From: Rubripirellula sp.
Lineage (GTDB): Bacteria; Planctomycetota; Planctomycetia; Pirellulales; Pirellulaceae
Length of the DNA stretch: 64,000 nt
Assembly: GCA_965216875.1 (NCBI GenBank)
Contig: OZ244207.1
Location: forward strand, 4,128,001 to 4,192,000
Reading direction: 5' to 3'
The notes below the pieces were generated by a model. The model had not been told where the DNA came from, searched no databases, and worked only from the letters and a program-made list of their open reading frames with translations. Shown piece after piece: positions 43,991 to 64,000 of this stretch. The position numbers were made by a program, and so were the translations under genes. Each line of letters starts with the position of its first letter. The stretch's first letter is position 1.

Positions 43991-44010
43991 GCGTTTACTC
44001 GACGGGCTAC

Positions 44011-46456: not shown

Positions 46457-46881
46457 GTTTCTCGTCCGTGAGTAAGAGATCAAATTCGCCAGGCGGTCGT
46501 TCCTTCGACCAACCTCTTTCTTAGCTACGGCGGGGACTGCTGCCGCAATCCGGGGGTAGCGAGAACTGTTCGTCGGTGTTGATCGGGTTACTCCGCCTAC
46601 CCTGGCCAAGGATTGACAACACCCCCGAGTAACCCTGCCAGCGATCAAGAGAGGTAGAACGAGCAGCAACGACACAGACCGCACCACCCGAACGGTTGCC
46701 ACGACGCAACCCACAACAAGTCGCGGTTCGGCAAAACGCAACCTTCTGAATCGAAAGTCAAAGACCTCAAAACCCGAACCAATCCGTCGGGCGCAATCGT
46801 TGCGAACAGGCAAGTTTGCCAGTCAGAGAGGCTTCAGAATTCAGCTGCGGGTGCCCGGTGCAAATCCGTTCAGGCACGAAC

Positions 46882-47641: not shown

Positions 47642-49924
47642 TCATTGAGGCTCGGCTGGGATTCCGAGACTTTCAAGCTCTTCGTTGCCACGGGCAAACA
47701 GCCGCAAGAAGGTCGTGCGATGATGACGAAATTCGTCGGCAAACATCTCACGATCGGACGCGTACTTGCTCTCCTGGATATCGACGATGATTTTGCGCAG
47801 GCAATCGACCAGCAGCTCTTTTGCTTCTTTCTGTTGTCCGCGCTGGCACCAGATCTCCGCAAGGATGCTCATCTCCTCACATCGGTGCGCACTATCAAGT
47901 CCGTCACGAAGCTTGAGACAAAAACGTTCTGCATCATCGCTCAAGCCAACCTTGTAAGCGGCCGTCCCGAGCTTGCCGTAGCCAAGGTTGTGATCCCAAT
48001 GAGGCGAGAATGTTTCAATCAGTTCGGTGACATGCGCTGTCGACTTGCCCGATCGCTCACCCGCAGCATCGATCGCAACCAGCGCGTCGACGTATTCATC
48101 AAATCGATGTCCGACAACGCTAAAACTATCGAGCGTCGCTTCTCGGACCGACTCATCTGCATCGCCAACAAGCTCAAGGAAACGTTGATAGACACGGACG
48201 ATCGTTTCTTCCTTATTCGTGCCGTTGACTTCGACGCAAGCATCGACGTAACGATCAAAATGTCGTGCCAACAAACTATGACTGCCAAGTAGCTCTTCTT
48301 GTCGCTGAGGGTTTGCATCGCCCGCTTCGGACATAAACCGTTCGTAGGCTTCGATGATCGCCGCCGACGTGGGAACCGACTCTTGCAACTCGAGATGCTT
48401 CCGTCGGTCGAGCTCATTCTCGAATCCCAACAGCTGGCGTCCAATGTGGATCATGAGAAGCGCCCGTGCGTGCGTGCCTTCCGGCTGCTCAGTCGCCGGA
48501 TACCATCGACTGCGAGGCCCATCGAGCACGACCCAACCCTCTTCCCCGCCGCATTGAGCCGTTGCCAAGGCAACGAAATGGGAGGCGATGCCCAACTTTG
48601 GTGAGACTTCGGCGACGGTCGTCAGGTTTGCCGCTTCAAGCGTTTCGCCCTGCCACTGACTGAGCATTCCCGCGTATTCGTCGGCATCGTCCACATCGTT
48701 TTCATCGATCAGCGAAGCGTATTGCATCTCCCAGTAACAGTGGATTGCGTACACGTCTTCAGGAGGCCGCTGATGCATCTTGTAAGTGAAGAAACACCAA
48801 GTGGCACTTCCCACCAACCCTGCATCGACATCATCAGCCTCGAGTCCCGTTTGGTCTCGCATTCGATATCGAATCACCCAGAACGGTCGCAACTCGCGGT
48901 CTGGGGGCCAAGCGAGTTGCCGGTGGTCAACAATTTCCAACTCATCGGGTGCTTGCCCCAATTCATTCGGGTGCGCCAACCATTGCGAAAAGGCGGCCTT
49001 GGCCCGAAACGTGTCGTCTTGTGAATCGTTCGGAATCAAATCCTCGCGATCCAGTTCGGCCAGATAACGCGTCGCGACATCGCTATGGTTCACATCAAGA
49101 CAGTATCTCGCGAGGACCTTCAATCCTGATTCGCGTCCAAGTTTTCCCGCCGCCCAAGCCGCTTCCAATTGCACCGACGTATCGGCATGATCCATCGCCA
49201 GTGCCAGCAACTGGTCACGCGCAGGATTACTGATGAAGGGCAGTGCTGCGGTGGCACTGTGCGCGTAACTTGACTCACTCTCGTCAGGATTCTCCAACCA
49301 CTCGCGCAGCATCTGCCACCCCGCGGGCGAATCAAACGGATGGTCATCAAGTTCGCCTGCGATGGCTGGACCGTTGGCCGCATCAAGCAACGCGATCGCG
49401 AGGAAACCCTCGGGCAGCGGGTCACTCAGTGCCTGAAAAAGGTCATCACGATGCGGATGGCCGTCTGAGTAGATGCCTAAGATGACGTGCCAAAGGTATC
49501 CATCGGGCGCAAGCGGCAACTTTGCGGATGCGATGACTTTCTCGGTACCCGCGGGCGCACCGTACATCGCCAAAATCTTCAACACGTAAAGTAAGTCGCT
49601 CGGGTCGTCTTGATCAACCGTTTGCATCAGTTCATCAAACATGCGAACAAGTTCTGGCAGTCCCTCGAGGTAGAGCACTTCATACGCGGGAACGTCCGTA
49701 CCGTCGACATCCTGAAACAAGCCCGCAAGCGCATAGAGTGGTGACTGGAGAACACTCTTGCTCGAGCAGTCGGCAATCGAGAGGCTTTGCAGCGCTTCGC
49801 AGATTGCCTTGGCGTCTTTTTTTGAACTGATCGCGTAGTCATCCAAACCCTGCAACTCTTTGACCAAGTCACCGCCTGGTTTCATGCCGCGCGCGATCGC
49901 TCGGCGAAGAGGACTGCTAAACAC
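47642..49924 (-). CDS. Large acidic alpha-helical (HEAT/TPR-like) hypothetical protein
   Basis: 760-aa ORF with HEAT-like LAMDHADTSVQLEAAWAAGKLG and a TPR-like C-terminus. Confidence 0.7.
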   Translation of the reverse strand: MFSSPLRRAIARGMKPGGDLVKELQGLDDYAISSKKDAKAICEALQSLSIADCSSKSVLQSPLYALAGLFQDVDGTDVPAYEVLYLEGLPELVRMFDELMQTVDQDDPSDLLYVLKILAMYGAPAGTEKVIASAKLPLAPDGYLWHVILGIYSDGHPHRDDLFQALSDPLPEGFLAIALLDAANGPAIAGELDDHPFDSPAGWQMLREWLENPDESESSYAHSATAALPFISNPARDQLLALAMDHADTSVQLEAAWAAGKLGRESGLKVLARYCLDVNHSDVATRYLAELDREDLIPNDSQDDTFRAKAAFSQWLAHPNELGQAPDELEIVDHRQLAWPPDRELRPFWVIRYRMRDQTGLEADDVDAGLVGSATWCFFTYKMHQRPPEDVYAIHCYWEMQYASLIDENDVDDADEYAGMLSQWQGETLEAANLTTVAEVSPKLGIASHFVALATAQCGGEEGWVVLDGPRSRWYPATEQPEGTHARALLMIHIGRQLLGFENELDRRKHLELQESVPTSAAIIEAYERFMSEAGDANPQRQEELLGSHSLLARHFDRYVDACVEVNGTNKEETIVRVYQRFLELVGDADESVREATLDSFSVVGHRFDEYVDALVAIDAAGERSGKSTAHVTELIETFSPHWDHNLGYGKLGTAAYKVGLSDDAERFCLKLRDGLDSAHRCEEMSILAEIWCQRGQQKEAKELLVDCLRKIIVDIQESKYASDREMFADEFRHHRTTFLRLFARGNEELESLGIPAEPQ

Positions 49925-50073: not shown

Positions 50074-50139
50074 GTAGTGGATGAGGCCACGAATCCCTCA
50101 AACGCACCCAGCCCAAGGACTCGTTGCCTCGTCCACTAC
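50074..50139. repeat. GTAGTGGA-family REP doublet overlapping the monooxygenase stop codon
   Basis: GTAGTGGATGAGGCCACGAATCC...GGACTCGTTGCCTCGTCCACTAC. Confidence 0.75.
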
Positions 50140-51359
50140 TTTTTTAGCGCCGCGACATCAGCCAAATTCTTTAGGTTGCTGAGAACATGATCGGTATCAG
50201 GACCAAAATCGAGCAAACAGGCGATCTCGGTCACTCCGATCGCCTGCAGTTCTCGGCATGTCGCGGCGCATGATTGCACCGTCCCCATCAACGACCGGCC
50301 ACCAATGAACTTGTTCAACATCCACTCGAGCATTTGATCGAGTTCTGCTTTTGGCAAAGTTTCCAAATCCATTGTCTGCCCTTGGCTCACCGCCAATTGC
50401 TTGAGCAGTCCCAGGTTGTCGCGCAGGTATTCGCAGTAGGCTGCACCGGCTTCTTCCCGAACTTGGTCAAACGTTTCGCCCACAAACGTGTGCAGTGTGA
50501 CTGCGATTTCGCCCGGTCCTTGGTGCCCGGCACGGCCTCGTGCTTGCCGGTAGATGTCAACCTTGACCTTCAGTTCACCGATGTCCTGATTGAAAAGGTG
50601 CGTCAGAACGCCAACACCCATTTCGCCGGCGCGGCGAAAGGTCTCGGGATTGCCCGCGGCAGTCAACCAAACTGGCAATTCGGGTTGCACCGGCGTTGGG
50701 TAGGTTCGGACTGAAATCGAATCACCCGTCCCACTTGCGCGTTGCACCTCTTCGCCTCGCCAAAGCCGGCGCACCTGATCGATTCCGTCGTACATGTTGT
50801 CCGATCGATCTTGATACGCCTCAGGAGCGAGCACGAAGTCATCGGGATGCCAACCAGAAGCAAAGGCAAGCTCCACTCGCCCACCTGACAAATTGTCGAC
50901 CACGGCCCATTGCTCAGCGACGCGAAGTGGATCGTTCAGCGGCATCACAACACTGCCCGCTTTGAGTTTCAAGCTCTTGGTTCGACTTGCAATCGCTGCA
51001 TGTAAAACCGCGGGACTGGGATAAAGGCAACCAAACTTTGTGAAATGGCGCTCAGGCAACCAAATCCCATCGAAGCCGTGGCGGTCGGCAAACAAGGCCG
51101 CTTCGGTCAGCAATCGATACTTGTCCCCCTTGGCGTCCGTTTCCTGGTCTCCAAAAAACATCAACGACATTCTTAGGTCGGACGCATCACCATCAGCAAC
51201 CACGTCGGCTTTCGAAGCGTCGCGGATCGCCTGCAAACACTCCTGCTTGGTTCCCGCGATCGTTGTACGCGTCCATCCGCTGGGCACATCGCGATCGATG
51301 GGCCAACACGACGAACGGCCTGTTCCATTTTGAACGACGATGTAACGTTCCGTCTTCAC
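50136..51359 (-). CDS. MbtH-like domain fused to a MupA/Atu3671-type luciferase-like monooxygenase
   Basis: N-terminal YIVVQN...SCWP...VPSGW...KQECLQAI, then SLMFF, WLPERHF, LRVAEQWAVVDNLSGGRV, ASGWHPDDFV and EIACLLDFG. The GTG start overlaps the megasynthase stop. Confidence 0.88.
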   Translation of the reverse strand: MKTERYIVVQNGTGRSSCWPIDRDVPSGWTRTTIAGTKQECLQAIRDASKADVVADGDASDLRMSLMFFGDQETDAKGDKYRLLTEAALFADRHGFDGIWLPERHFTKFGCLYPSPAVLHAAIASRTKSLKLKAGSVVMPLNDPLRVAEQWAVVDNLSGGRVELAFASGWHPDDFVLAPEAYQDRSDNMYDGIDQVRRLWRGEEVQRASGTGDSISVRTYPTPVQPELPVWLTAAGNPETFRRAGEMGVGVLTHLFNQDIGELKVKVDIYRQARGRAGHQGPGEIAVTLHTFVGETFDQVREEAGAAYCEYLRDNLGLLKQLAVSQGQTMDLETLPKAELDQMLEWMLNKFIGGRSLMGTVQSCAATCRELQAIGVTEIACLLDFGPDTDHVLSNLKNLADVAALKK

Positions 51360-54300
51360 GATTCACCCCTCGCGGACTTTGGCAAAGCCTTGGGGTCATG
51401 AAGATGCCCGTACGCCACACAACCGACTTCGATTCCGGCGCCGACCGAGACGAGCAGCCACGTTTCGGATTTCGTTGTCTTGAGAGTCTTACCCAACGCG
51501 ATCGCAATCGTTGACGTAAAGGCATCGCTACCCTGCGAATCGGCTGCGACCACGGCATCAACATCAATGCCAAGGGCTTGCGCAACCACAATCGGGGCAA
51601 TGCGAGTTGGGGTCGTCACCAAGACGCGATTGAATTGTGCAATCGACGTTCCTTCGCGCCCTAGGAAGTCATCAACGGCGTCGATCAAACAAGCGACAAC
51701 GGTCTCCTCGAGATCATCCGACCGTTCGATCTCCAACCTCGCCACGCGCTGGACCAGACGCGTTCGCGTTACGAGTTTGCCTGCGTGCTCTGGATAGGAT
51801 TTAAAGAAGAACTCACCGAAACCCTCGCTCGCGTTGTCGGTCCGTTCAATTGCAATTGCTGACCCACCAATCACAAGCCCGTACTGAGCAAACGACCGAT
51901 CATTGTTCTCAGTTTCCGAGGCGGTGATCAAAGCACGCTTGCCCGCTCCTGTTCTCAGCGACCCGGCAACCAGACTGCACGCAACAAGTGGCCCGCGAGA
52001 GCTGTCGGTCAAGTCGTAGGCAAGCCCTCGGCTATCGCCCTCGGCAACCTCGGCCATCCCCAGCTCTCCCGACACGATCGCCGCAACGGCTGGCTCACTA
52101 AGAAACTCGTCCCGATACACGCCTGCATGAATCAACATGTCTACATCACTGGCTTGCCAGTCGACAGAAGCCAACGACTTGGAAGCCGCGGCGAGGCTGG
52201 TTCGGACAACGGACATTTCAACCGCACTCTCGATGCTGCCATTAAGATTCGGTTCCTGCGTTTCCTTGACCCAAGAGGTCGCCACAATACGAGTCCCGAA
52301 CAATTGATTCGGTAGGGTGATCGGGGCAACCGAACTCGACTTGGTTCCATCAGCAATACGCTCGGGGAGCGAATCGAAGGTATAGAGTGCTGTCCCGATC
52401 GTTTGCCCCGAACCACTGATGGCGAAAACAGCGCGATCCTCTTTCTGTATTCGTCCGCCAAGAATCATGTCCATCACCGCGACCCAGTGGGTCGTGCTGG
52501 CGGTGTTGCCACGATGCGTCAAGTTGTTGACGGTATTCTTGTGATCACACACGGTTGCATCGAAGTGTCGATTGAGTTCCTCAATCGCTCCATCGAGCGT
52601 TGTCGTCGACGTTTGATGCATGATGACGTGTTGAATCTCGTCGGGCCGCCACTTTCGTTGAACCAACGATCGATGCGCGTGGTTGACCGAAAGGTCGAGT
52701 GTCACGGCCGACGCTTTCACAGCATCGGTGTACATGATCGCGCCACCGTGCGGGCGGTCCGTCACTTTCGCAACGCACAAATCATGGTGCCGTCCATCGG
52801 TGTAGAGATCGAGGGACTCAAATCCATAGCCACTGTCGGTCAGTTCTACGATCACCGCCGCACCGGCATCGCCGAGCGTCAAACAAGCCAGACGAGGATC
52901 AAGAAACCCTTCGATTTCCTTTTGGGCCGTTTTGGTTAGGTGCGTGATGTACTCGCCACTGACAATCATCACGCGCGCCGCCTGACCACTGCGCAATTGG
53001 TCTTCTGCAATGGAAAGGGCTGTAAAGAACCCAGCGCAGGCGTTGCATACATCAAACGCCAATGCCGAAGTCGCACCAAGTCGCTGCTTCAGTTTGGAAG
53101 CCGTTGAGGGTTCATAGGAAACTTCGAAGTCCGGCCCGTCGTAGCGAGAGATATTGCATGCGATAAGCGAATCAATCTCGCCCGCTTCGAATCGTGAGTT
53201 TTCGAGACAGCTGATCGCGGCCTTGAATGCGAGATCGATCGCGAACTCCGTTTCCCCGGCAACGTGTCGACTTTGGATTCCCGTCATTCGCTCAAGCGGG
53301 AACTCAAGTTTTTTCTGGCAACCTTCGATGACCTCATCGGTCGTCTCGGTCGCAGGGGGCAGATAAGTGCCTAAACTTTCGACCGTCATCTTCAACGAAG
53401 TCGATCGCGACGGTTCCTGCGCAACAGAATCGATCGTTTGTTGCCCGATCGGCTGGCCCAAGACATCTGGCTCGGCCGCAGCCTGCGTTTCAGCTGCGGG
53501 CCCGTCGGCATCGATCGCGGCAGCCAGCTCGGCGACGGTCTGGAACTGAAACATGCGTTCGGCCGACACTGAAAAGCCTTCACGCATCGCCAGCTCGGCG
53601 GCTTGAAGTGCCTGCAGTGATGCGCCACCCAACTCGAAAAAGTTGTCGTGAATGCCTACCGAAGGGACATTCAAGACCTTGCACCAAATCGCTGCGATCA
53701 CCTTTTCCGTTGGTGTCGATGGCGGAACGGCCTCGGTGGCTTCAACTGCATCACTGGGATCTGGCAAGCGGGTTGCATCCAGTTTGCCGCTCACGGTCAA
53801 CGGAAATGCGTCCACACCGACAAACGCTTTGGGGACCATGTAGCAAGGCAAATGACTTGCGACATGCTTGCGAAGATCGGCTTGGAAGGAAGCGTCATCG
53901 GCATCGCTGCTGCGAGGCCGATCGGCGAGGTAGTAACCGACTAAGCCGATTCCCGAGTGATACAACACGTGAGCGTCTTTGATTGACTTGCCCGCGCGCA
54001 TCACGGCCGCGATCTCACCCGGCTCGATTCGATTTCCGTCCACCTTGACTTGGTCATCGATGCGGCCGAGGAATTCAACCTCACCCGTTGTCGTCCAACG
54101 CGCGCGATCGCCCGATCGATACATCGAGGCATCAAAAGCATCGCTAAAGGGGTTGGGCACAAAGACGTCCGCGGTCAACTCGGGTCGCCCGAAGTATTCA
54201 AGCGCCAATCCGGGACCTGAAATACAAAGTTCACCTGGAACGCCGATGGGCATCGGTTCAAGATGCCCGTCCACAATCTCGATTCGTACGTTGGACACCG

Positions 54301-57300
54301 GTTGTCCCAACGAAGGCTCTGTTCCGTCACCCGAGCATTGGTGAGTCGACGCCCAGACGGTCGTTTCAGTTGGGCCGTAGGCGTTGAACATTCGCCGAGG
54401 GTTTCCGGCACGTTCGATCCATTTGTCGACCAGCTGCGCCGAACAGGCTTCGCCCGCAGAAATGACGGTATGCAAAGCGGGCAAGTCGTCACTCGAAAGC
54501 GCCGACAAAACCGACGGAGGCAACGTCGCGACGTTGACATTTGAACGGCGCAATTGGTCTGTGATTTCACCAGTTGACGACCGAACGACCCCCGGGTCGA
54601 TCACATAAAGCGTCGCTCCGGCATGAAGTGCCAGAATGATTTCGAAAACGGACGCGTCAAAGTGCAACGAACTGAACTGCAGACATTTGTCGCTCGCCTG
54701 AATACCAAATGTCTTGCGTTGGGCCACGGCCATGTTGGCGATTCCGCGGTGCGTCAGGACGGTTCCCTTGGGTTTCCCAGTCGATCCAGAGGTGTAGATC
54801 AGGTAGGCCAAGTCATCGTGCGTGACCTTCGGCAAAGCAACGCGTTCGGAGTTCCCGAAACGAGCTTCGTCACCACCAATCGACACCACGACGCGATACC
54901 CACCGAGCGCAAGTTCATCGATCTTGTTTTGATCTTGGTCGGTCAAAACCACGTCAGGCGAAGCGTCGGCAAAGATCGCCTGCAATCGCGATCGAGGGTG
55001 TGCCGGGTCAAGCGGAACGTATGCAGCGCCCGCTCGCCAAGCAGCCATGATTCCGATGATCGATTCAACGCCTCGACCAGCCAACAACCCGACGATGTCC
55101 CCCTTGCGGGTTCCGGCCGAGAGAAGCCGAGCCGCAACGCTGTCGACACGTTGATCGAGTTGGCGATAAGAGATTGCCGCCGATTCCGATTCGAGTGCGA
55201 TTGCATCTGGCGTTTGCTTTGCCCATTGCCGAAGCAATGCGTCACCCGCATGATCGGGATCAAAATCGACGTGCGTATCGTTCCACCGCGTGATGCACTC
55301 CTGCTGTTCCAACGAAAGCAGCGGCGCGGTGCGAATCGGAACATCGGGATTGATGGCGATCGCATCAATCAACGTATTGAAGCTCTGCGAAAGACTCTCG
55401 ATCGCTTCGTCGCTAAACAAATCGGTGTTGTAGCGAAATGTCAGCTTCAATTCGTCTTCGAGTTCGAATACGATCAAGGTCAAATCAAAGGGAGCGCCGC
55501 GCTGTTCCATCAACAACGGCTTGAGCCTCAAACGGTCGCTCGACTTACCCGGCGCGAAGTGCGATTCTTTGAGGTGCCGCGGCTTGTCCCAAATGAACAT
55601 CGTCTGGATCAGCGGCGATCGACTCGTATCGCGGAGCGGCCGGACCTTCTCGACCAGTTTGGCAAACGGCAACGCTTGGTGCTGCAACGCGTCGAGTACT
55701 TCGCGTTGACTGTCACGAAGCACATCACGGAACGTCGGCGAACCGTTGATCCGGGTTCGCAAAACAAGCTGGTTCAGGAAATAGCCGACGATCCCTTCCC
55801 ATTCCGAACGTCCGCGACTCGCCGAAACCGTTCCAACGAGCAGATCATCCTGGCCACAGATGCGTGACAAAAACGTTTGGTACGCGGCAAGCACAATCGT
55901 GAACAGTGTCGTTCGTTCTTCAACCGCAACATCGCGAAGCGATTCGACAACCTCCGTCGGGACCGTCCACTCCAACGATTTTCCGTTGAACGTCTGCTCG
56001 GCAGGACGCTGGTAGGTCGTCGGCAACTCCAATACATGCGGTGCACCTTCGAGTTTGCGTTGCCAAAACCGCCAAAGCTGCTCGCCCTCTTCACTAGTGT
56101 CGAGCCCGCGCTCCCAATCGACGTAGGCGTCGTAGGTCGTTGGCAGTGTCCCCAAATCGATCGTCCCGCCACCAACGATCATTGCGTAAAGGTCAAGCAA
56201 CTCCTGGATCAACACGTCCATCGACCACAGGTCGGCCGCAATATGGTGCATCGCGATCGACAAGACGTCTCCCTTGCGACATCGCAAGAGCGTGAAACGA
56301 ATGACCGGACCGTCCTGGAGATCAAAGGGGGCGTCGGCTTGATCGCGAATCCAATCGACCATGCGGCTCCGCTTCCAATCCTGGCAGTCCTTTTCGGCAA
56401 TCTCGACATCGATCGAATCGGACAAAACGCGAACCGCGGCATCACCATCGAGTCGATAGCGAGTTCGCAAGACGGGATGGCGTTTGACGAGCGAGCGACA
56501 TGCCTTGGTCATCGCGTCGCGGTCGATCGTGCGCGACGTTTGTGCTGCAAAGGCAAAGTTGTACGCGGGGCCCTCAGGAGCACGCTGGTGAATCAACCAC
56601 AAAGCTGTCTGACCGACCGACATCGGACCAAGCACACGCTCGCCCGTCGACGGTGACCGGCGAGTGGCGATGTCGGTGGTTTGCGGTTGCCGTTGCGACG
56701 AGGGGTCGGTTGCCAAATCCGACGCTACCCGGTCGGCAACACTCACTTCCTGACGGTCTCCGCGAGGAACAATCGAGCGAGGGTCGACTTCTTGGGAATC
56801 GAGCGCAATGCTCATCAATTGCGTGAGCGACTTGCCCTCAAGGAACGCGACCATCGGCACCGACAACTCAAGCTCCGACGAAAGTCGGTTCTTCAATTGA
56901 ATCGCCATCAACGAATCGATACCGAGATTGGACACCGGCTGGTCGATGTCGATCTCAGCCGGATCATGCTCAAGCACTGCGGCAACGGCGTGACGAAAGT
57001 AGTCTTCGAGCGCTGCTCGGCGACCGTCAACGTTGCTGCTTTGTTGAAACGCTTCAACCCACTTGGACAGGTCGACTCGCGTTTTCCCGGCTCTCTGAGC
57101 TGAACGGTTCCCCAATGATCGTGATGCGGATTGCGAACTCGTTGCTTTCTGAGGCCTCGAATCATCGCCTACACCGGTCGCAACCAAGACCGCTTGGCCT
57201 TGTTGGACGCGCGCCAACGAAGCATCAGGAGCGAGGATGGCGGGGTCGCGATACCCGCATCCATTCAACAGTTGCAGCCAAGCTTTTGAATCAATCAGAG

Positions 57301-60300
57301 GATAGTTCGGCCTCAACTCCGAATCTTCGAATCGCCACCACCCTTCGGTCAGTCCAAAGATCAAATCGAGCATCGGCTCGGGGCGGACGCCTTCGAGTGC
57401 CACCAACAAACCGCCCGACCTGAGCAATCGATTTGCGTTGGACAAGGTCCGTTTCAAGTCACTCGTCGCGTGAAAAACGTTTGCGGCGATCACGATGTCA
57501 AAAGCGTCTTCTTCGAATCCTTGCGACTCGATGGTCGATTCGATATCGAGCACTTGAAACTCGAGCGAGCCCGAGGCTTCTTGAGAAGATTCGAAGCGTC
57601 CCGACGCTTCCGCCACGAGCAGCGGCGAGACATCGGTGAACACATAGGATTCAACCTTATCTTTGATCGCGGGCCAAACGAAACTTGTCGTTCCGCCCGT
57701 GCCGCCTCCGATTTCAAGCACGCGTATTGGGCGCGATGGATCGTGCGCCAATTGCGTGTCGATCGCCGCGACCACCGCGTCGGCAACCGTCTGATTGCAA
57801 ACCTGGGCGACCGGTGAGGCGCGGTAAAGCGATTCCAAATCGGACGCATCTCCGCCAGGGAAAAGGACCTCCAGAGGATCGGTCTGGCCAGCGAGAACGG
57901 ATGCAAGTTTGCTGCCGCAACGAGCCACCAGTTTGAGTTCCCGAGTCACGGAGGGATGCTTTTGCCTCAGTGGTGCAACTGCGCCACACAACTGGGACGC
58001 CTCAATTCGCTGGTGCCCCACAACGCGCCAAGACCTTGTGGATTGATGCTCGATGGGCTCCAGCCATCGTTGGTCAGCCAAAATCTCGCATATGCGCTCG
58101 GCCAAACGCAAATGTTTCGCAGCGATTCGTCCCACTGCCACTTCGTTTGCAAGATCCACAACTTGGCCGTCGCGATCCGCAAGTCCGAGCGTCTCGAACG
58201 CCTTGTACATGTAACGCGCAACCAATTGATCGACTTCTGGCTTTGCAGCAGCGTAAGACTCGAGTTCCTCGGCCAAACCGTGACAGTCTCGATCGCGTTG
58301 CCTATCGGTCACCGACGAGGCAATGGTGTCGGTATCGATGCTCGGCGCGGCATCGTTCTTCGCGTCATCCAACCAGTAGCTTCGCGGTTGGAAGGGGTAC
58401 CCTGGAAGCCGGAAATTCGAAGGTTCCGACCGGTCGCGACTTCCGTTGACTTCATCCCAATCGAGTTCGACACCTCGGCAGAAAAGCTCTCCAACCGCAG
58501 TCAACACACAACGCAAATCGTCTTGACCGCGAACGAGTGTTTGTAAGTAGTCGATAGGGATGTTGCTATTGAGTTGCCCCAAGGTGCAAAGTGTCGGATG
58601 CGGTCCGATCTCGATGGCAACATCACACTTTGACTTGGCCAATGACTCGAGGGCGCGGACATATTGAACTGGCTCGCGACTGTGGCGTGTCCAGTAATTC
58701 GGCGAACAGACTTCCGAAGTCACCTGCTGGCCGGTGAGTGACGAGATATACGTCTTCTCTGGCAACGACAACTTGGCTGACTCGATCACACCTTTGATAG
58801 GCTCGAGCACCGGGTCCATCAGCGAGGAATGAAACGCTTGATTGATTCGCAAAGGCCGTGTTGTGGTTCCCGCTGCCGCCAACGTGTCTTGCAACATGGC
58901 GATTCCCGACGAGGCACCCGAAACCACGATGTGCTCGGGAGCATCGATCGCTGCGATCGACAGGTCCTGTCCAAGTTCATTGATTCGATGCTGCACCGAC
59001 TCGGCCGAATCAAAGACAACGGTCATCGCACCTGCTTGGCTAAGCAGCGAGACGTGACGGGCACGCACTGCCGTCAATCGCAATGCATCCTCCCAGGTCA
59101 TCACACCCGAGATCGCCGCCGCCGCGAACTCGCCCATGCTATGGCCCAGCACGGTCGTCGCACCAGCGCCGAATTGCTCGAACGTCTTGGCGAGCGCAAG
59201 TTGCAACGAAAACAAACTCGTTTGTGCAGCCGGTCCGTTTAGCAATTCGGCCACGGCCCCATTGGTCTCGGGCGACGAAGCGATCAGATCGGTGATCGAA
59301 TGATCGAACTCGTCCCTCAGAAGTTCATCACAGCAATCGATCCACTTCCGAAACGTTGGGAGATGGCGATACAGCATCTGTCCCATGCCGACGTGCTGTC
59401 CACCTTGACCGGTAAACAGCATCGCGATCGAAACCGCTCGGTCAGAGAGGGCCGTTGCGGCGCAAACATGTTCGCTTGCCTTGCCCTCGGCAAACTGCGT
59501 CAACCGCTCCGCAACGGTTTCTTTCGAACTTCCGACAACGGCGACACGATGACGTAGACTCGACCGTTGATATTGGGTCGCCTGTGCGATCACGTCGAGC
59601 TCGCCCGCACTTTGCCGCAATACGTCACCATGCTGGCGAGCCAAATCTGCTAGGCCCTCGACGTGGCCCGACGACAACGTGATTAGACTTGGAAGTGTGC
59701 CGGTTGGACTCGCTTTCGGTGCTCGCTTTGGTCTTTCGCCTTGGCCAACAATCACATGAGCGTTGGTGCCTCCGAATCCAAACGAACTCACTGCCGCCCG
59801 GCGACGCGTTGAGTCGTCCCATCTCGCATTGGTTGTCGAAATCGACAGACGCGATTCATCGAGATCGATGTGTGGATTCAATACGGCAAGGTTCGGCTGC
59901 GAAACCACCTCGCCATGTTCCAGCTCCAACACAACTTTCAAAAGACTGGCCAATCCTGCCGCCGACTCGAGATGACCGAGGTTTGCTTTGACTGCACCTA
60001 AGAAACAGTCGTTGGCCTGCTGTCCGCGTCGGCCATAGACTTGGTTCAGGCTGCGAAATTCGATCGGATCGCCAAGGATCGTTCCCGTGCCGTGCGCTTC
60101 GATTCTGGAAACGGCAGACGGTTCTAGCGCGGCATCAGCAAGTGCGTTTCGATACAGCTGCTGCTGAGCATCACCACTCGGGGCGGTGATACCATTGGTC
60201 AAGCCATCCTGATTAATCGCCGTTCCTTCGATGACGGCACGAATGAGGTCGCCGTCACGCCGTGCCGCCTCAAGCGGCTTCAACACAACCGCAATGCACC

Positions 60301-63118
60301 CTTCGCCGCGACCATATCCGTTGGCACTCGCATCAAAGGTCTTACACAAACCATCGGGCGAGAGCATTTCGCCATCGGTCAGCGTTTCCGAAACTTCGGG
60401 GCTCAGGATTAAGTTGACGCCGGCCACAACGGCCGACTCGCAATCGCCGGACTGAATGGCACGAACGGCTTGATGCAGCGCAACCAACGACGAGGAACAA
60501 GCGGTGTCGATCGACAAACTTGGCCCGCGCAGATCGAAGTGATACGAAAGACGGTGCGCCGCCATGCTTGCCGCGTTGCCGGTCATCGAATAGGTCGTGT
60601 GCCGAGCACCCGAGGCGAGGATCAGCCGCTCGTAGTCGCGATTGGCAATGCCAACGAACACTCCCATGTTGCGGCCACCAACCGAGTTGGGGTCGAGCGT
60701 CGCATCCTCCAGCGATCGCCAACAAGTTTCCAACAGCAATCGATGCTGTGGGTCCATTTGTTTGGCTTCACGAGGCGAGATCGAAAAGAGCGCTGCGTCA
60801 AACGTTGAGACGTCTTCCATCCAACCGGCACGTTGGATGTTGGATTGGCCATTGATCGCCTCGCGACGAGCCGCGGGAGGATCCGCAATGACGTTGCGCC
60901 CTTGCACAAGCAGCTGCCAAAAGTCGTCGAGCGATTCGCATCGGGGCAAGCGACACGCCGCGCCAACAATTGCGATGGCTCCGCTTCGTCGCTGTGCATC
61001 CGCGTTAGACGCCCCAACCACTTCAGGCTGACGTTCGCCATGATCGATTTGTTGATCGCTTGCTTCGGCACTGAGCATCTGCGCGACGGCCGTGATCGTT
61101 GGCGCTTCGTACATCAACGTCGCAGGTATGGGACGCCCGAGATGACTCTCAAGTTCAGCGACCATCTGCACGGCACTGACCGAATCGATTCCGTAACCGG
61201 TGAACGGGCGCGTGACATCGATCTCGTCAGTCGAAAGCCCAAGATGTTTGGCGATCCGCTCGACCAACCACGCTGAGACGTCGGCGGCGGCGACCTTGCG
61301 GGGAGCGTCCAGAGCCGGCCCAAAAGTCAGCGCGTCCTCTTCCTTCTCAGCAGGCCCACGGGATGCAACGCCGTCAAAGGTTTTCGCGAGGTACAAATCG
61401 CGTGTTGCGAGTCGTTTGACCTTTCCGCTTGATGTCTTGGGAAGGGCTCGTTTCGCAATGAGTACCACCCGGTAGGGCTGAACGTCAAACGCCTCGACGA
61501 CTCTCTCGCGGATCGCCGTGATGATTTGCTCGCGTTCCTTCTGGGAACACCGTTCGATCTCCTGCACGATCACTAACTGCGAAGCGTCTTCAACTTCGAT
61601 CTCGAACGCGACGGAAGCGTTGGGGACAAGTTTCGGATGCACGTCGGCGAAACTGGCTTCCACGTCCGACGGCTGAAGGTTGCGCCCGCGAACAATGATC
61701 AATTCTTTCAATCGCCCCGTCACATACAGCTGACCATCGCGCAGGTAGCCGAGGTCGCCCGTTCGCAAGAAACGCTCCCTGCGTCCTTGGATCTCGACTG
61801 CAAAGGTTTCTTCTGAATCGGCTCGTTGCCAGTAACCTTGGCTCACGTGCGCGCCGCTAACGCAAACTTCCCCGACTTCGCCATCAGGTAGCTCACGAAG
61901 CGTTTCGGGATCGGCGCAGACCACCACCTGGTCGCCCGCAGGAGCGCCGCAACTGACCACTTCACCCGTCGCCACAACTCCCGAGGGTGCCGTCGAGTCG
62001 GTGCGATGTTCCCCGCGCGGTCCGCCGGTCACCAACAACGTTGCTTCAGCAAGTCCGTAGCAGGGAAAGAACGCTGAGGACTGAAAACCTATCGACGAAA
62101 ACCGATCCGCAAACCGCTGCAACGAATTCTCACGAACCGGTTCGGCGCCCGTGAACGCAAGCGTCCAATGACTCAGATCCAAACCTTCAAGGTCGGCATC
62201 CCGGATTCGATCCACACAGGTATCGAATGCAAAGTTAGGACCACCACTAACGCTCGCCTTGTACTTGCTGATCGCTTGCAACCAGCGAACCGGCTTCTGA
62301 ATGAAGGATGCAGGCGGCATCACGTGTGTACAGCGTCCCGCGTACAGCACTTGCAACAAGCCACCAATCAATCCCATGTCATGATAAGGTGGCAACCAAG
62401 TCACACTCCAATGATCACGATAGCGTTCGATTTCAAACGCCTCGTAGATCATTTGCAAGTTGGCAAGAAGATTGCCATGCGATAGACAAACGCCCTTGGG
62501 ATCGCTGGTGGAACCGGACGTGTACTGCAACACCGCCAACGAGTCGGGTGACAGGTTGGGTGGCGTCCAATTGGCGGTGTTGCCCGCAAGCGTGTTGCTG
62601 CCTCTCGCCTGGTCAACGGTCGGTGCGTTGGCGAGATCGTCAACGTTGAACCACTTCAATCGGCCAAGCTGTGGTGATGTCTTCAGTATCTGATCGCGAC
62701 GCTCAAAGATCGATTGATCGACCAGAGCCACCGTCGCCCCGGAGTCGCTGACGATGTGATCAAGGCGTTCGTCAGCGCGGCGTGGACGAGGCGGGTAGGC
62801 GGTCACCACTGTCATACCGCTGTAGAGCGTGCCGAACAGCGCTCGCAGGTAGGCTTCGCCAGGCGGGCATAGAATGACGGCGCGCGGCAGCAGGTCGTCG
62901 TCGAGATTCAGCGGATTCGTTCGCAGCTGTTTCGAGATGTTGACCGCCGCGCGATCAAGGTCGCCATACCGCAACCATTTGTCTTCGACCCCATCGCCCT
63001 GAAAGAACGTGTATCCTTTTTCGGCGCAGGACCCTCGGCCGCGATCGATCAGCAGATCGACCACCGTCGAAACGGCGGCAATCGATGGGGGGGGACGGTC
63101 GTTCACAGACTTCGACAT
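51356..63118 (-). CDS. Hybrid FAAL-PKS-NRPS megasynthase: FAAL-ACP-KS-AT-MT-ACP-C-A-PCP-KASIII-KASIII'
   Basis: FAAL: YTSGSTSDPKG, WLPPYHDMGL, PCYGLAEAT. ACP: GIDS. KS: DTACSSS, HGTGT, GHLE. AT: GHSMG, QAFH. MT: LEIGGGTGG. ACP: GIDSL. C: HHIAAD. A: YTSGSTGKPKG, YGPTE. PCP: GGASL. KAS-III: EPSTA, NAC, HQ, GN. A second, Cys-less thiolase-fold domain follows. Confidence 0.92.
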   Translation of the reverse strand: MSKSVNDRPPPSIAAVSTVVDLLIDRGRGSCAEKGYTFFQGDGVEDKWLRYGDLDRAAVNISKQLRTNPLNLDDDLLPRAVILCPPGEAYLRALFGTLYSGMTVVTAYPPRPRRADERLDHIVSDSGATVALVDQSIFERRDQILKTSPQLGRLKWFNVDDLANAPTVDQARGSNTLAGNTANWTPPNLSPDSLAVLQYTSGSTSDPKGVCLSHGNLLANLQMIYEAFEIERYRDHWSVTWLPPYHDMGLIGGLLQVLYAGRCTHVMPPASFIQKPVRWLQAISKYKASVSGGPNFAFDTCVDRIRDADLEGLDLSHWTLAFTGAEPVRENSLQRFADRFSSIGFQSSAFFPCYGLAEATLLVTGGPRGEHRTDSTAPSGVVATGEVVSCGAPAGDQVVVCADPETLRELPDGEVGEVCVSGAHVSQGYWQRADSEETFAVEIQGRRERFLRTGDLGYLRDGQLYVTGRLKELIIVRGRNLQPSDVEASFADVHPKLVPNASVAFEIEVEDASQLVIVQEIERCSQKEREQIITAIRERVVEAFDVQPYRVVLIAKRALPKTSSGKVKRLATRDLYLAKTFDGVASRGPAEKEEDALTFGPALDAPRKVAAADVSAWLVERIAKHLGLSTDEIDVTRPFTGYGIDSVSAVQMVAELESHLGRPIPATLMYEAPTITAVAQMLSAEASDQQIDHGERQPEVVGASNADAQRRSGAIAIVGAACRLPRCESLDDFWQLLVQGRNVIADPPAARREAINGQSNIQRAGWMEDVSTFDAALFSISPREAKQMDPQHRLLLETCWRSLEDATLDPNSVGGRNMGVFVGIANRDYERLILASGARHTTYSMTGNAASMAAHRLSYHFDLRGPSLSIDTACSSSLVALHQAVRAIQSGDCESAVVAGVNLILSPEVSETLTDGEMLSPDGLCKTFDASANGYGRGEGCIAVVLKPLEAARRDGDLIRAVIEGTAINQDGLTNGITAPSGDAQQQLYRNALADAALEPSAVSRIEAHGTGTILGDPIEFRSLNQVYGRRGQQANDCFLGAVKANLGHLESAAGLASLLKVVLELEHGEVVSQPNLAVLNPHIDLDESRLSISTTNARWDDSTRRRAAVSSFGFGGTNAHVIVGQGERPKRAPKASPTGTLPSLITLSSGHVEGLADLARQHGDVLRQSAGELDVIAQATQYQRSSLRHRVAVVGSSKETVAERLTQFAEGKASEHVCAATALSDRAVSIAMLFTGQGGQHVGMGQMLYRHLPTFRKWIDCCDELLRDEFDHSITDLIASSPETNGAVAELLNGPAAQTSLFSLQLALAKTFEQFGAGATTVLGHSMGEFAAAAISGVMTWEDALRLTAVRARHVSLLSQAGAMTVVFDSAESVQHRINELGQDLSIAAIDAPEHIVVSGASSGIAMLQDTLAAAGTTTRPLRINQAFHSSLMDPVLEPIKGVIESAKLSLPEKTYISSLTGQQVTSEVCSPNYWTRHSREPVQYVRALESLAKSKCDVAIEIGPHPTLCTLGQLNSNIPIDYLQTLVRGQDDLRCVLTAVGELFCRGVELDWDEVNGSRDRSEPSNFRLPGYPFQPRSYWLDDAKNDAAPSIDTDTIASSVTDRQRDRDCHGLAEELESYAAAKPEVDQLVARYMYKAFETLGLADRDGQVVDLANEVAVGRIAAKHLRLAERICEILADQRWLEPIEHQSTRSWRVVGHQRIEASQLCGAVAPLRQKHPSVTRELKLVARCGSKLASVLAGQTDPLEVLFPGGDASDLESLYRASPVAQVCNQTVADAVVAAIDTQLAHDPSRPIRVLEIGGGTGGTTSFVWPAIKDKVESYVFTDVSPLLVAEASGRFESSQEASGSLEFQVLDIESTIESQGFEEDAFDIVIAANVFHATSDLKRTLSNANRLLRSGGLLVALEGVRPEPMLDLIFGLTEGWWRFEDSELRPNYPLIDSKAWLQLLNGCGYRDPAILAPDASLARVQQGQAVLVATGVGDDSRPQKATSSQSASRSLGNRSAQRAGKTRVDLSKWVEAFQQSSNVDGRRAALEDYFRHAVAAVLEHDPAEIDIDQPVSNLGIDSLMAIQLKNRLSSELELSVPMVAFLEGKSLTQLMSIALDSQEVDPRSIVPRGDRQEVSVADRVASDLATDPSSQRQPQTTDIATRRSPSTGERVLGPMSVGQTALWLIHQRAPEGPAYNFAFAAQTSRTIDRDAMTKACRSLVKRHPVLRTRYRLDGDAAVRVLSDSIDVEIAEKDCQDWKRSRMVDWIRDQADAPFDLQDGPVIRFTLLRCRKGDVLSIAMHHIAADLWSMDVLIQELLDLYAMIVGGGTIDLGTLPTTYDAYVDWERGLDTSEEGEQLWRFWQRKLEGAPHVLELPTTYQRPAEQTFNGKSLEWTVPTEVVESLRDVAVEERTTLFTIVLAAYQTFLSRICGQDDLLVGTVSASRGRSEWEGIVGYFLNQLVLRTRINGSPTFRDVLRDSQREVLDALQHQALPFAKLVEKVRPLRDTSRSPLIQTMFIWDKPRHLKESHFAPGKSSDRLRLKPLLMEQRGAPFDLTLIVFELEDELKLTFRYNTDLFSDEAIESLSQSFNTLIDAIAINPDVPIRTAPLLSLEQQECITRWNDTHVDFDPDHAGDALLRQWAKQTPDAIALESESAAISYRQLDQRVDSVAARLLSAGTRKGDIVGLLAGRGVESIIGIMAAWRAGAAYVPLDPAHPRSRLQAIFADASPDVVLTDQDQNKIDELALGGYRVVVSIGGDEARFGNSERVALPKVTHDDLAYLIYTSGSTGKPKGTVLTHRGIANMAVAQRKTFGIQASDKCLQFSSLHFDASVFEIILALHAGATLYVIDPGVVRSSTGEITDQLRRSNVNVATLPPSVLSALSSDDLPALHTVISAGEACSAQLVDKWIERAGNPRRMFNAYGPTETTVWASTHQCSGDGTEPSLGQPVSNVRIEIVDGHLEPMPIGVPGELCISGPGLALEYFGRPELTADVFVPNPFSDAFDASMYRSGDRARWTTTGEVEFLGRIDDQVKVDGNRIEPGEIAAVMRAGKSIKDAHVLYHSGIGLVGYYLADRPRSSDADDASFQADLRKHVASHLPCYMVPKAFVGVDAFPLTVSGKLDATRLPDPSDAVEATEAVPPSTPTEKVIAAIWCKVLNVPSVGIHDNFFELGGASLQALQAAELAMREGFSVSAERMFQFQTVAELAAAIDADGPAAETQAAAEPDVLGQPIGQQTIDSVAQEPSRSTSLKMTVESLGTYLPPATETTDEVIEGCQKKLEFPLERMTGIQSRHVAGETEFAIDLAFKAAISCLENSRFEAGEIDSLIACNISRYDGPDFEVSYEPSTASKLKQRLGATSALAFDVCNACAGFFTALSIAEDQLRSGQAARVMIVSGEYITHLTKTAQKEIEGFLDPRLACLTLGDAGAAVIVELTDSGYGFESLDLYTDGRHHDLCVAKVTDRPHGGAIMYTDAVKASAVTLDLSVNHAHRSLVQRKWRPDEIQHVIMHQTSTTTLDGAIEELNRHFDATVCDHKNTVNNLTHRGNTASTTHWVAVMDMILGGRIQKEDRAVFAISGSGQTIGTALYTFDSLPERIADGTKSSSVAPITLPNQLFGTRIVATSWVKETQEPNLNGSIESAVEMSVVRTSLAAASKSLASVDWQASDVDMLIHAGVYRDEFLSEPAVAAIVSGELGMAEVAEGDSRGLAYDLTDSSRGPLVACSLVAGSLRTGAGKRALITASETENNDRSFAQYGLVIGGSAIAIERTDNASEGFGEFFFKSYPEHAGKLVTRTRLVQRVARLEIERSDDLEETVVACLIDAVDDFLGREGTSIAQFNRVLVTTPTRIAPIVVAQALGIDVDAVVAADSQGSDAFTSTIAIALGKTLKTTKSETWLLVSVGAGIEVGCVAYGHLHDPKALPKSARGES

Positions 63119-63216
63119 CGTCCCATTTTGGGGGACGCAATTTTCGGGCAAGAACCAGTTGAACCGACAAGAATAATTCAATTCTTGAGGCTTTTCCAAA
63201 GAAGGTAAATCGCCGC

Positions 63217-64000
63217 ATGCCGCCGACACCAAAGCCACGCTTCGCAGTCACCGGTGCAGCGGGGTTTATTGGCCGTCAACTCGTCCAATCCCTCGTCGCC
63301 GACAACCACGAAGTGACCGCTATCGTGCGCTCAGAGAAACCGTCAAGCAAGGCTTGGGGGGAACAAGTGCGCGTTGTCGAAGCCGACGTTGAAAACCCCG
63401 GTTCGCTGCGAGGTCTTTTCGACGACGCCGAGGTGGTCGTACACCTTGCCGGCCGTACGCTGGCAAAAAACCGCAAACAATTTGACCGGGTGAACGTCGA
63501 GGGCACGCGGAACGTCGCTGAAAGTTGTGCTCGATCCGATTCGCCTCCGCGACTTGTGTTGGTTTCTTCCCTCGCCGCAGGCGGCCCCAAAAAACTCACC
63601 GCAGGCGGTCCCAAAGAGCTCGCCCCGGCAGGTCGGAAGGCTGCGTCGGGCGGTCGGAAGGCTGCGTCGGGCGGTCGGAAGGCTGCGCTGGGCGGTCGGA
63701 AGGCTGCGCCGGGCGGTCGGAAGGCTACGCCGGGCGAACCCGTCTCACACTACGGCAGCAGCAAACGATTGGCCGAGGAGACGCTCGAACGATTCTCCGG
63801 GAAACTACCGATGCGAATCCTGAGACCGCCGACCGTTTTCGGAGAAAACGATCCCTACATGTTGGGCTTGTACAAAACGGCCAAACGCGGCTTTGTCGTT
63901 TTACCCGGCCGCCATGACTTTCGCTATTCGTTGATTCACGTCGACGATTTGGCCGACGCAATCATTCACCTGTCGAACTTCGAGGGTGCCGCCACAAAAG
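63217..64000 (+). CDS. Extended SDR (NAD-dependent epimerase/3-beta-HSD, OleD/LstD-like), runs off the window edge
   Basis: Absent from the ORF track. Manual translation from ATG 63217 gives VTGAAGFIG, VVHLAG, NVEGT, VSS, YGSSK, RPPTVFG and IHVDDLA; open to the end of the window. Confidence 0.88.
   Translation, partial: MPPTPKPRFAVTGAAGFIGRQLVQSLVADNHEVTAIVRSEKPSSKAWGEQVRVVEADVENPGSLRGLFDDAEVVVHLAGRTLAKNRKQFDRVNVEGTRNVAESCARSDSPPRLVLVSSLAAGGPKKLTAGGPKELAPAGRKAASGGRKAASGGRKAALGGRKAAPGGRKATPGEPVSHYGSSKRLAEETLERFSGKLPMRILRPPTVFGENDPYMLGLYKTAKRGFVVLPGRHDFRYSLIHVDDLADAIIHLSNFEGAATK
63571..63735 (+). repeat. In-frame coding tandem repeats (2 x 24 bp and 5 x 21 bp)
   Basis: CTC.CCGCAGGCGG.CCCAAA.A. 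twice (63571-63618); GGTCGGAAGGCT.CG..GGGC five times (63631-63735). Confidence 0.92.

Follow-up and report, generated by a model that had tools for sequence, protein, structure and literature searches.

A fused pair of ketoacyl synthase III domains ends a Rubripirellula assembly line and may release its product by Claisen condensation

In a 64,000-nucleotide stretch of the genome of Rubripirellula sp. (contig OZ244207.1, positions 4,128,001 to 4,192,000; "the window" below means this whole stretch), a single open reading frame (ORF) on the reverse strand (51356..63238) encodes a megasynthase of 3960 amino acids that combines a polyketide synthase (PKS) module with a nonribosomal peptide synthetase (NRPS) module. 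Directly behind the final carrier protein, the protein ends in two ketoacyl synthase III (KAS-III) domains, which had been noticed in an original prediction made from the letters of the window. The first half of this didomain has a complete Cys/His/Asn active site; the second, as judged from its residues, is catalytically dead but keeps one Glu. The didomain is a widespread bacterial family and is not unique to this genome. On the basis of these residues and of gene neighbours, we tentatively propose that it off-loads the finished chain by a non-decarboxylative Claisen condensation, as LstAB, OleA and NocG carry out.

The domains and residues in question are listed here, with residue numbers of the megasynthase. 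Family counts refer to an alignment of the didomain with 213 relatives spanning its full length, these being the members of a set of 264 stored proteins that passed a coverage filter.

52346..53389, reverse strand: KAS-III domain 1, the active half, residues 3284-3631 (Pfam, NCBIfam, phmmer).
51359..52345, reverse strand: KAS-III domain 2, the predicted dead half, residues 3632-3960, 329 amino acids (NCBIfam, profile-profile comparison, alignment).
Codon 53111-53113, reverse strand: Glu3376, the own Glu of domain 1, in a Glu-Pro-Ser-Thr-Ala loop; 211 of 214.
Codon 53036-53038, reverse strand: Cys3401 of domain 1; 214 of 214.
Codon 52616-52618, reverse strand: His3541 of domain 1; 214 of 214.
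Codon 52505-52507, reverse strand: Asn3578 of domain 1; 214 of 214.
Codon 52094-52096, reverse strand: Glu3715 of domain 2, followed by Pro3716; Glu 214 of 214, Pro 214 of 214.

Domain 1 is recognized by the Pfam models ACP_syn_III (residues 3395-3482, 1.7e-19) and ACP_syn_III_C (residues 3527-3620, 4e-11). The last 329 residues of the megasynthase have no Pfam match; they are matched by the NCBIfam models NF006720 (3.7e-10) and NF006829 (1.1e-8, residues 45-310 of 329), and PF08541 is found twice in relatives of the didomain. When profiles of the two halves were compared with each other, they aligned over 269 columns (probability 99.9%, E 2e-32). An AlphaFold2 model of the 677-residue didomain, built from 61 sequences, has a pLDDT of 92.8 and a pTM of 0.94, so that both halves are confidently placed as one body, and single KAS-III chains found by Foldseek match half of this model with TM-scores of 0.79-0.91 (normalized by target length). 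By profile and predicted structure, then, domain 2 is a full KAS-III fold and a paralogue of domain 1, and the claim of two tandem thiolase-fold domains behind the peptidyl carrier protein (PCP) is borne out.

At the positions of the catalytic Cys, His and Asn, domain 2 of the megasynthase has Ser, Thr and Asp. Across the family, the Cys equivalent is Ala in 94 proteins, Ser in 54, Gly in 47 and another residue in 19, and never Cys (0/214). The His equivalent is Pro in 195 of the 214 and in none of them His, and the Asn equivalent is Asp in 193 and Asn in 10. The invariant Glu is the sole catalytic-type residue that the dead half retains. Such conservation of the Cys/His/Asn of domain 1 and the Glu-Pro of domain 2 is far beyond chance, and the substitutions indicate that domain 2 is catalytically dead family-wide. 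With the triad kept in domain 1 and lost from domain 2, each didomain is predicted to have exactly one active site. Since domain 2 never loses the Glu although its own site appears dead, this residue is best explained by action in trans, in the site of domain 1. The motifs quoted in the original prediction are all present, and its codon positions for Cys and Glu are exact. Its reading of domain 2 as lacking Cys and His but keeping Glu extends to the whole family, and the division of a catalytic set over two halves, as in LstA/LstB and NltA/NltB, was found in the alignment. On one metagenome contig, the two KAS-III halves are neighbouring separate ORFs (L052:1-1032 and L052:1048-2151; 52% and 34% identity to the window's halves), which is either a natural split like that of LstA/LstB or a frameshift.

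According to Pfam, the didomain follows a line consisting of fatty acyl-AMP ligase (FAAL), acyl carrier protein (ACP), ketosynthase (KS), acyltransferase (AT), C-methyltransferase (cMT), ACP, condensation (C), adenylation (A) and PCP domains, and it is separated from the PCP by a linker of about 43 residues. The domains ahead of the didomain are as follows.

61376..63118, reverse strand: FAAL, about residues 41-621 (PF00501, PF23024).
61073-61270, reverse strand: ACP1, after the FAAL, residues 657-722 (PF00550).
56795..60979, reverse strand: PKS module (Pfam; active-site motifs read in the translation).
59888-60979, reverse strand: KS, residues 754-1117 (Pfam).
58574-59419, reverse strand: AT, residues 1274-1555 (Pfam).
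57377-57751, reverse strand: C-methyltransferase, about residues 1830-1954 (Pfam).
56795-57019, reverse strand: ACP2, residues 2074-2148 (Pfam).
53519..56626, reverse strand: NRPS module (Pfam).
55292-56626, reverse strand: C domain, residues 2205-2649 (Pfam).
53783-55234, reverse strand: A domain, residues 2669-3152 (Pfam).
53519-53725, reverse strand: PCP, about residues 3172-3240, with Ser3207 (Pfam).

Searched with Pfam over its whole length, the protein has no thioesterase (TE), no reductase (R; NAD_binding_4) and no second C domain. The didomain is thus its last domain, with no other release domain in the megasynthase, and it stands where the original prediction had placed it, at the end of the line instead of a TE. 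Pfam finds no ketoreductase (KR) in the PKS module either, so the beta-keto group should be kept. The longest form of the ORF starts with a GTG at 63238 and overlaps the start of a divergent gene for a short-chain dehydrogenase/reductase (SDR, at 63217) by 22 bases. The ATG at residue 41 (window 63118) is the more probable start and would give about 100 bases of common promoter region with the SDR gene.

An exhaustive HMMER search of 1.84 billion representatives, clustered at 50% identity, returned 4782 proteins at E≤0.001, of which 1165 reach E≤1e-10 and 270 reach E≤1e-30. In all full matches listed, no more than a few residues separate the end of the didomain from the C-terminus, and 46 of the 150 best matches exceed 1000 amino acids. 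Among 19 relatives read with Pfam, the domains ahead of the didomain include FAAL-ACP-C-A-PCP, C-A-PCP-C-A-PCP, a luciferase-like monooxygenase (LLM) with C-A-PCP, FAAL-ACP, C-PCP and A-PCP; the commonest architecture is C-A-PCP-didomain, of about 1750-1800 amino acids. Four proteins (P0123-P0126) have the same FAAL-ACP-KS-AT-MT-ACP-C-A-PCP line as the window, with didomains 46-58% identical to it. One protein (P0192) starts with LLM-C-A-PCP, and another (P0135) is a FAAL-ACP-didomain. PCP-didomain and stand-alone forms (~670 amino acids) are frequent (937 proteins at E≤0.001 among 8000 scored candidates). This domain-architecture search therefore places the didomain at the C-terminus behind PCP, A-PCP, C-A-PCP, FAAL-ACP and full PKS-NRPS lines. 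Relatives come from several phyla and from soil and marine samples; their source names include Ktedonobacteraceae, Chloroflexi, Flavihumibacter, Roseivirga and Nitrospira, and in a protein atlas one cluster is commonest in Planctomycetota, with generic names only. Of 401 genomes searched in the phylum of the window, 3 have the didomain, this one included, so its distribution there is patchy. When domain 2 alone was used to look for split, LstB-like forms, only two short proteins were returned, a result with no bearing on kinship with LstB.

The enzymes that suggest a function have been described in published work. In OleA, E117 reaches into the Cys/His/Asn site of the partner subunit, where it is the base that generates the carbanion; labelling has shown that the chain on Cys is the nucleophile and that the chain on pantetheine is the electrophile (PMC8180931). 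LstA carries C128/H271/N305, and E60 of LstB is essential (PMC12141560), as is E57 of NltB (10.1101/856955). NocG, with E100/C125/H275/N304, performs the same reaction on chains tethered to carrier proteins; OleA, PpyS and NocG are listed with a Glu beside Cys/His/Asn (PMC9486936, Table 1). Taken together, a Glu next to Cys/His/Asn sets OleA, LstAB, NltAB, NocG and PpyS apart from FabH.

By analogy, we propose that the KAS-III pair is a fused pseudo-heterodimer with a single active site made of Cys3401, His3541 and Asn3578 together with Glu3715 from the dead domain 2. The FAAL would activate a fatty acid, which would receive one malonyl extension, C-methylated and left unreduced, and then form an amide bond with a Phe-like amino acid, so that the last PCP would hold an N-(2-methyl-3-oxoacyl)-aminoacyl thioester. 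Cys3401 would carry one acyl chain, as in OleA, LstAB, NltAB, NocG and PpyS; Glu3715 would take the alpha-proton of that chain, His and Asn would stabilize the enolate, and the carbanion would attack a second thioester in a non-decarboxylative, head-to-head Claisen condensation. The chain bound to the PCP pantetheine would stand where OleA has an acyl-CoA, so that formation of the C-C bond would itself free the carrier. If the roles are those of OleA, with the Cys-bound chain as nucleophile, attack on the PCP thioester would release the line. The product would be an alpha-branched beta-keto acid, or a ketone once decarboxylated, which the adjacent SDR could reduce and an adjacent MbtH-LLM protein could oxidize. 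The analysis itself shows the domain order, the fold, the conserved residues, the C-terminal place in all relatives and the recurring neighbours; we infer the action of the Glu in trans, the Claisen chemistry, which chain sits on Cys, what the second substrate is and what is made.

Several observations weigh against this proposal. The triad of domain 1 equally fits decarboxylative FabH chemistry. With the OleA-type model NF006720 (PRK09258; cut-off 285), domain 1 scores only 113.9 bits. In phmmer searches it matches FabH at 1e-20 versus OleA at 2.5e-8, in its Foldseek ranking the first OleA appears at rank 42, and its profile scores 315.7 against that of FabH versus 286.3 against that of OleA, and so lies slightly nearer FabH. 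The own Glu of domain 1 points to the dead site, and the proposal does not account for it. The predicted substrate of the megasynthase is a beta-ketoamide, which suits an intramolecular Dieckmann closure. Finally, the window's SDR has little similarity to OleD (65 and 52 bits), and no homologue of oleB (alpha/beta-hydrolase) or oleC (beta-lactone synthetase), nor any TE, was found in the window from 43 to 64 kb or in the next 18 kb.

The scores of domain 1 and its full FabH triad raise the possibility of a FabH-like, decarboxylative extension, in which the PCP-bound chain would move to Cys3401 and be condensed with malonyl-ACP or malonyl-CoA, delivering a gamma-amino-beta-ketoacyl unit to fatty acid synthesis or yielding a free beta-keto acid or tetramate. 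We consider this improbable. A general base is not required for decarboxylative condensation. FabH has Phe at the position where each half of the didomain has Glu, as the phmmer alignment shows for domain 1, and the Glu that the dead half keeps in 214 of 214 proteins would be left to be accounted for. Domain 1 is also far under the cut-offs of the FabH models NF006829 (143.8 versus 249 bits) and TIGR00747 (125 versus 292 bits).

Domain 2 scores 39.6 bits with the OleA-type model. Its best PDB matches are X. campestris OleA chains, found through the Glu loop with a weak E of about 0.1, and in the alignment its Glu falls on the motif Glu of OleA (Glu117). At that position, the OleA consensus of the phylum is Phe-Glu-Pro, and FabH has no Glu. 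The remaining profile-profile scores are 285.1 for OleA with FabH, 253.1 for domain 1 with domain 2, 198.3 for domain 2 with FabH and 182.4 for domain 2 with OleA. Because NF006720 is a model of the OleA family and both halves are far under its cut-off, an assignment of the didomain as OleA, suggested by its PRK09258 matches, was rejected.

For a tree, we drew at random from larger sets 23 rows for each half, 16 for OleA and 16 for FabH (78 rows), the OleA and FabH rows all coming from the window's phylum and LstA/B, NltA/B, NocG and PpyS not being among the rows. Four clean clades resulted, with supports of 99-100 (OleA 100, FabH 99), and the halves stood together against OleA plus FabH with a support of only 82. 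Domain 2 is a long branch. In a topology test of three arrangements on 36 rows with fast constrained trees, (domain 1, OleA)(domain 2, FabH) was the best of the three, without significance; (domain 1, FabH)(domain 2, OleA) was not rejected (p-AU 0.30-0.35), and (domain 1, domain 2) had a p-AU of 0.04 under one model and 0.084 under the other. The halves are therefore best described, from their sequences, as separate old KAS-III lineages that belong to neither the OleA nor the FabH family and whose branching order shifts with sampling and model. A grouping with ordinary FabH, which the original prediction had named as one outcome that would count against it, did not appear in the 78-row tree, where FabH is a separate clade. 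Its description of the pair as OleA/LstAB-like stands for the split of residues and falls for membership of the OleA family, given the score of domain 1 and the separate clades.

The genome has a true OleA of its own (C1:2748139-2749173, L006:1411-2574; 451 bits with NF006720), which matches X. campestris OleA structures over its full length at 3e-52, as well as a true FabH (417 bits with NF006829). OleA-family genes (NF006720) occur in 70 of 201 genomes searched in the phylum. This canonical OleA (L006/L010) is not beside oleBCD, and an OleD-like gene (C1:1729232-1730224, L017; 331 bits, under the cut-off of 580) lies 1 Mb from it.

The amino acid loaded before the didomain bears on what could be released. 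The nine specificity positions of A domains, which we take to be those of the Stachelhaus codes together with their assignments to substrates, were read by anchoring on core motifs in 77 modules ahead of a didomain; these include near-identical copies and are not independent. The signatures are one residue off the serine code in 32 of the 77 and one residue off the glycine code in 14, and 12 are of the window's type, differing from the GrsA Phe code at 3 of 9 positions; the other 19 are of other kinds. The best single-module PDB matches of the window's A domain are TycA and GrsA, both of which we take to be Phe-activating, although whole-domain matches do not settle specificity. The signature of the window's A domain thus looks Phe-like.

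With a substrate of this kind, the didomain might act as a Dieckmann cyclase. The N-(beta-ketoacyl)-aminoacyl chain would be moved onto Cys3401, or handled while on the PCP, and the Glu would deprotonate C2 of the beta-ketoamide, closing a tetramic acid ring by an intramolecular Claisen reaction with no second substrate. PKS-NRPS hybrids that make tetramates are built in this way, with an NRPS module behind a PKS module that lacks KR (as read here by Pfam). The signatures of the modules ahead of the didomain mostly indicate Ser, Gly and aromatic amino acids, residues that are common in tetramates, and the Glu/Cys/His/Asn chemistry would serve equally. We nevertheless regard this route as unlikely. 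No beta-ketoamide is expected in the FAAL-ACP-didomain (P0135) or in lines whose last PKS module has a dehydratase (DH) and a KR (L001, L072, L101). The Dieckmann reaction is impossible in such FAAL-ACP-didomain and reducing-PKS lines, so it cannot be the general function of the family. The C-methyltransferase leaves at most one proton on C2, which would give an unusual quaternary C3, and the OleD-like reductases beside some relatives suit a beta-keto acid product better. For the window's own protein, from which a beta-ketoamide is expected, the reaction is a real alternative.

The genes that flank the megasynthase in the window are the following.

50136..51359, reverse strand: MbtH-like domain fused to an LLM of the MupA/Atu3671 family (TIGR04020, 1.9e-139, 465 bits, cut-off 244); its start overlaps the stop of the megasynthase.
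63217..64000, forward strand, continuing to C1:4192338: extended SDR of 373 amino acids, divergent from the 5' end of the megasynthase (profile matches).

By its matches, the SDR is a candidate ketoreductase for the released product and less likely a thioester reductase. Its identification as OleD was rejected on the two scores given above, OleD-likeness holding only for SDRs beside a few stand-alone relatives. It does match NAD_binding_4 (residues 11-223, 2.8e-19) and TIGR01746 (residues 11-284, 6.3e-15) and shares a promoter region with the megasynthase, so it could be imagined as a separate thioester reductase that frees the chain in aldehyde form, leaving the didomain with another role or none. 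This we judge very improbable, because its 55 bits with TIGR01746 compare with a cut-off of 213, because HpnA (67.5) and OleD-type (65.4) models score as well or better, and because strict conservation of the catalytic residues of the didomain does not fit a vestige. A release gene beyond the window had been named as a possible refutation: no TE lies in the next 18 kb, and this SDR, with its weak thioester-reductase similarity, does run past the window's end.

To see what accompanies the didomain elsewhere, neighbours were surveyed, with crude ORF calling, in 79 metagenome loci that carry a didomain gene (80 fetched), of which 69 have a downstream and 55 an upstream gene.

PKS/NRPS genes upstream: 44 loci.
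Phosphopantetheinyl transferase (PPTase): 18 loci.
adh_short SDR: 16 loci.
ABC ATPase: 12 loci.
Extended SDR (3β-HSD/epimerase type): 11 loci.
P450: 10 loci.
Type II TE: 8 loci.
FtsX permease: 8 loci.
MGDG-synthase-like glycosyltransferase: 7 loci.
GT28 glycosyltransferase: 4 loci.

The extended SDRs beside stand-alone didomains in L076=L077 and L002 match the full-length OleD model with 437 bits, under the cut-off of 580, and the other seven extended SDRs are 26-35% identical to the one in these loci. In L058 and L062, the gene right after the didomain gene encodes a homologue of the window's SDR. Reductases right after the didomain fit a beta-keto product.

Close homologues of the window's LLM (48-56% identity) occur in 8 loci. 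In one of them (L026), the LLM homologue is the next gene after a 3993-amino-acid protein with the window's architecture. Three more distant LLM homologues belong to stand-alone didomain clusters. In stand-alone clusters such as L072, L098 and L101, FAAL, LLM and an ACP-KS-AT-DH-KR-ACP PKS face a didomain-P450-PPTase operon. In seven loci (L001:2499-6506, L039, L050, L051, L073, L075 and L094), the PKS gene that immediately precedes a C-A-PCP-didomain gene contains an LLM domain with 48-50% identity to the window's; this domain sits at an unusual insertion site between two parts of the DH region and is followed by KR-ACP.

Genes for lipid or drug exporters, namely MMPL, an FtsX-type permease and an RND pump with OEP and HlyD, stand beside didomain genes in L046:10271-12808, L055:12028-14559 and L087:13324-19231, and hint that the products are exported lipids. 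Downstream of the window's cluster (43286-45270, reverse strand), a C39 peptidase resembling FapD (103 bits, cut-off 330) and a protein like the amyloid transporter FapF (64.5 bits, cut-off 700) may represent a distant export set of the functional-amyloid type. Near them are a 465-amino-acid protein without a family match (45416-46813) and a 760-amino-acid HEAT-repeat protein (47642-49924).

Taken as a whole, the neighbours point to exported, possibly glycosylated lipids, and they bring up two further readings. The frequent glycosyltransferases (7 + 4 loci) and lipid exporters would suit acyl transfer or hydrolysis, in which the chain would pass from PCP to Cys3401 and on to an O or N nucleophile (water, a sugar, a lipid or its own hydroxyl) with no C-C bond formed. 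KAS-III folds have become acyltransferases elsewhere (CerJ, DpsC and ChlB6 type). We hold there to be little chance of this here, as type II TEs stand as separate neighbours in 8 loci and as an invariant trans-acting Glu with intact Cys/His/Asn marks the head-to-head condensing group of OleA, PpyS and NocG (PMC9486936).

The other reading concerns the family, in most members of which a C-A-PCP module stands ahead of the didomain. The predominance of Ser and Gly signatures, together with reductases, glycosyltransferases and lipid exporters, would fit a thiotemplated route, independent of pyridoxal phosphate (PLP), to N-acyl-2-amino-3-keto lipids, which would be ceramide-like or mycolate-like. 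The neighbouring reductases, glycosyltransferases and FtsX/ABC/MMPL exporters would then reduce, glycosylate and export the product, and the window's protein would be an aromatic-amino-acid, polyketide-extended offshoot of the lipid pathway. We think it rather doubtful that this describes the family.

It is at release that a nonribosomal peptide or polyketide gains its final shape, and to our knowledge the repertoire of release domains is small, consisting of TE, R and terminal C domains and a few special cyclases. If the proposed condensation is correct, a fused, single-site KAS-III pair that frees a chain by adding a second carbon chain would represent a further release logic. It would be modular, since the didomain follows the PCPs and ACPs of many lines, and so useful for engineering branched lipopeptides; it would also offer structural work a natural single-chain version of the unstable LstAB and NltAB heterodimers.

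Compared with known systems, the didomain occupies the same place after the last carrier protein as the canonical release domains (TE, R and terminal C), from which the KAS-III pair differs in fold. A precedent for a condensing-enzyme fold in release is the terminal KS of the fungal tenuazonic acid synthetase TAS1. The pyrone-forming ketosynthases MxnB and CorB are KAS-III-like and release and join two assembly-line chains, as we propose for the didomain; unlike it, they are free-standing homodimers whose product is a pyrone made from two beta-ketoacyl chains. PDB entry 4v2p, presumably MxnB, is a weak match of domain 1 (2.6e-4). We found no description of a PCP-KASIII-KASIII ending in the full-text literature, whose coverage leaves out most subscription journals. 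The original prediction did not recognize this termination architecture from characterized systems; the didomain belongs to a widespread family and is not confined to this genome. Where it speaks of natural fusion chimeras, the review PMC12141560 cites Zhang et al. 2019 (JACS), so fused forms may be noted there.

OleA of X. campestris has the same fold and inserts a Glu-Pro loop from the partner into its Cys/His/Asn site, and the didomain has all four residues, split over its halves; OleA, however, is a homodimer with two active sites that uses acyl-CoA, whereas the didomain is predicted to have one active site. NocG (nocuolin A) and PpyS (photopyrones) are stand-alone ketosynthases with the Glu/Cys/His/Asn set that condense FAAL-loaded, carrier-tethered chains without decarboxylation (PMC9486936). 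The situation of NocG matches that of the FAAL-ACP-didomain and of the clusters with FAAL, PKS and a stand-alone didomain, but NocG and PpyS are homodimeric, single-domain enzymes that are not fused to a line.

In the residue split, as read from the sequence, the nearest parallels are LstA/LstB (lipstatin) and NltA/NltB (nocardiolactone), in which one partner has Cys/His/Asn and the other the essential Glu. These pairs catalyse a non-decarboxylative head-to-head Claisen condensation, with a reductase later in the pathway, as is proposed for the didomain. They differ in that the didomain's halves form one polypeptide, in cis behind the PCP of a PKS-NRPS line, in that LstAB and NltAB use two acyl-CoAs while the substrate of the didomain is predicted to be carrier-bound, and in that the window has no beta-lactone synthetase gene nearby; the likeness lies in the residue pattern. 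Our best reading is that the didomain represents a fused, in-cis, carrier-dependent version of an LstAB/OleA/NocG-type condensing enzyme.

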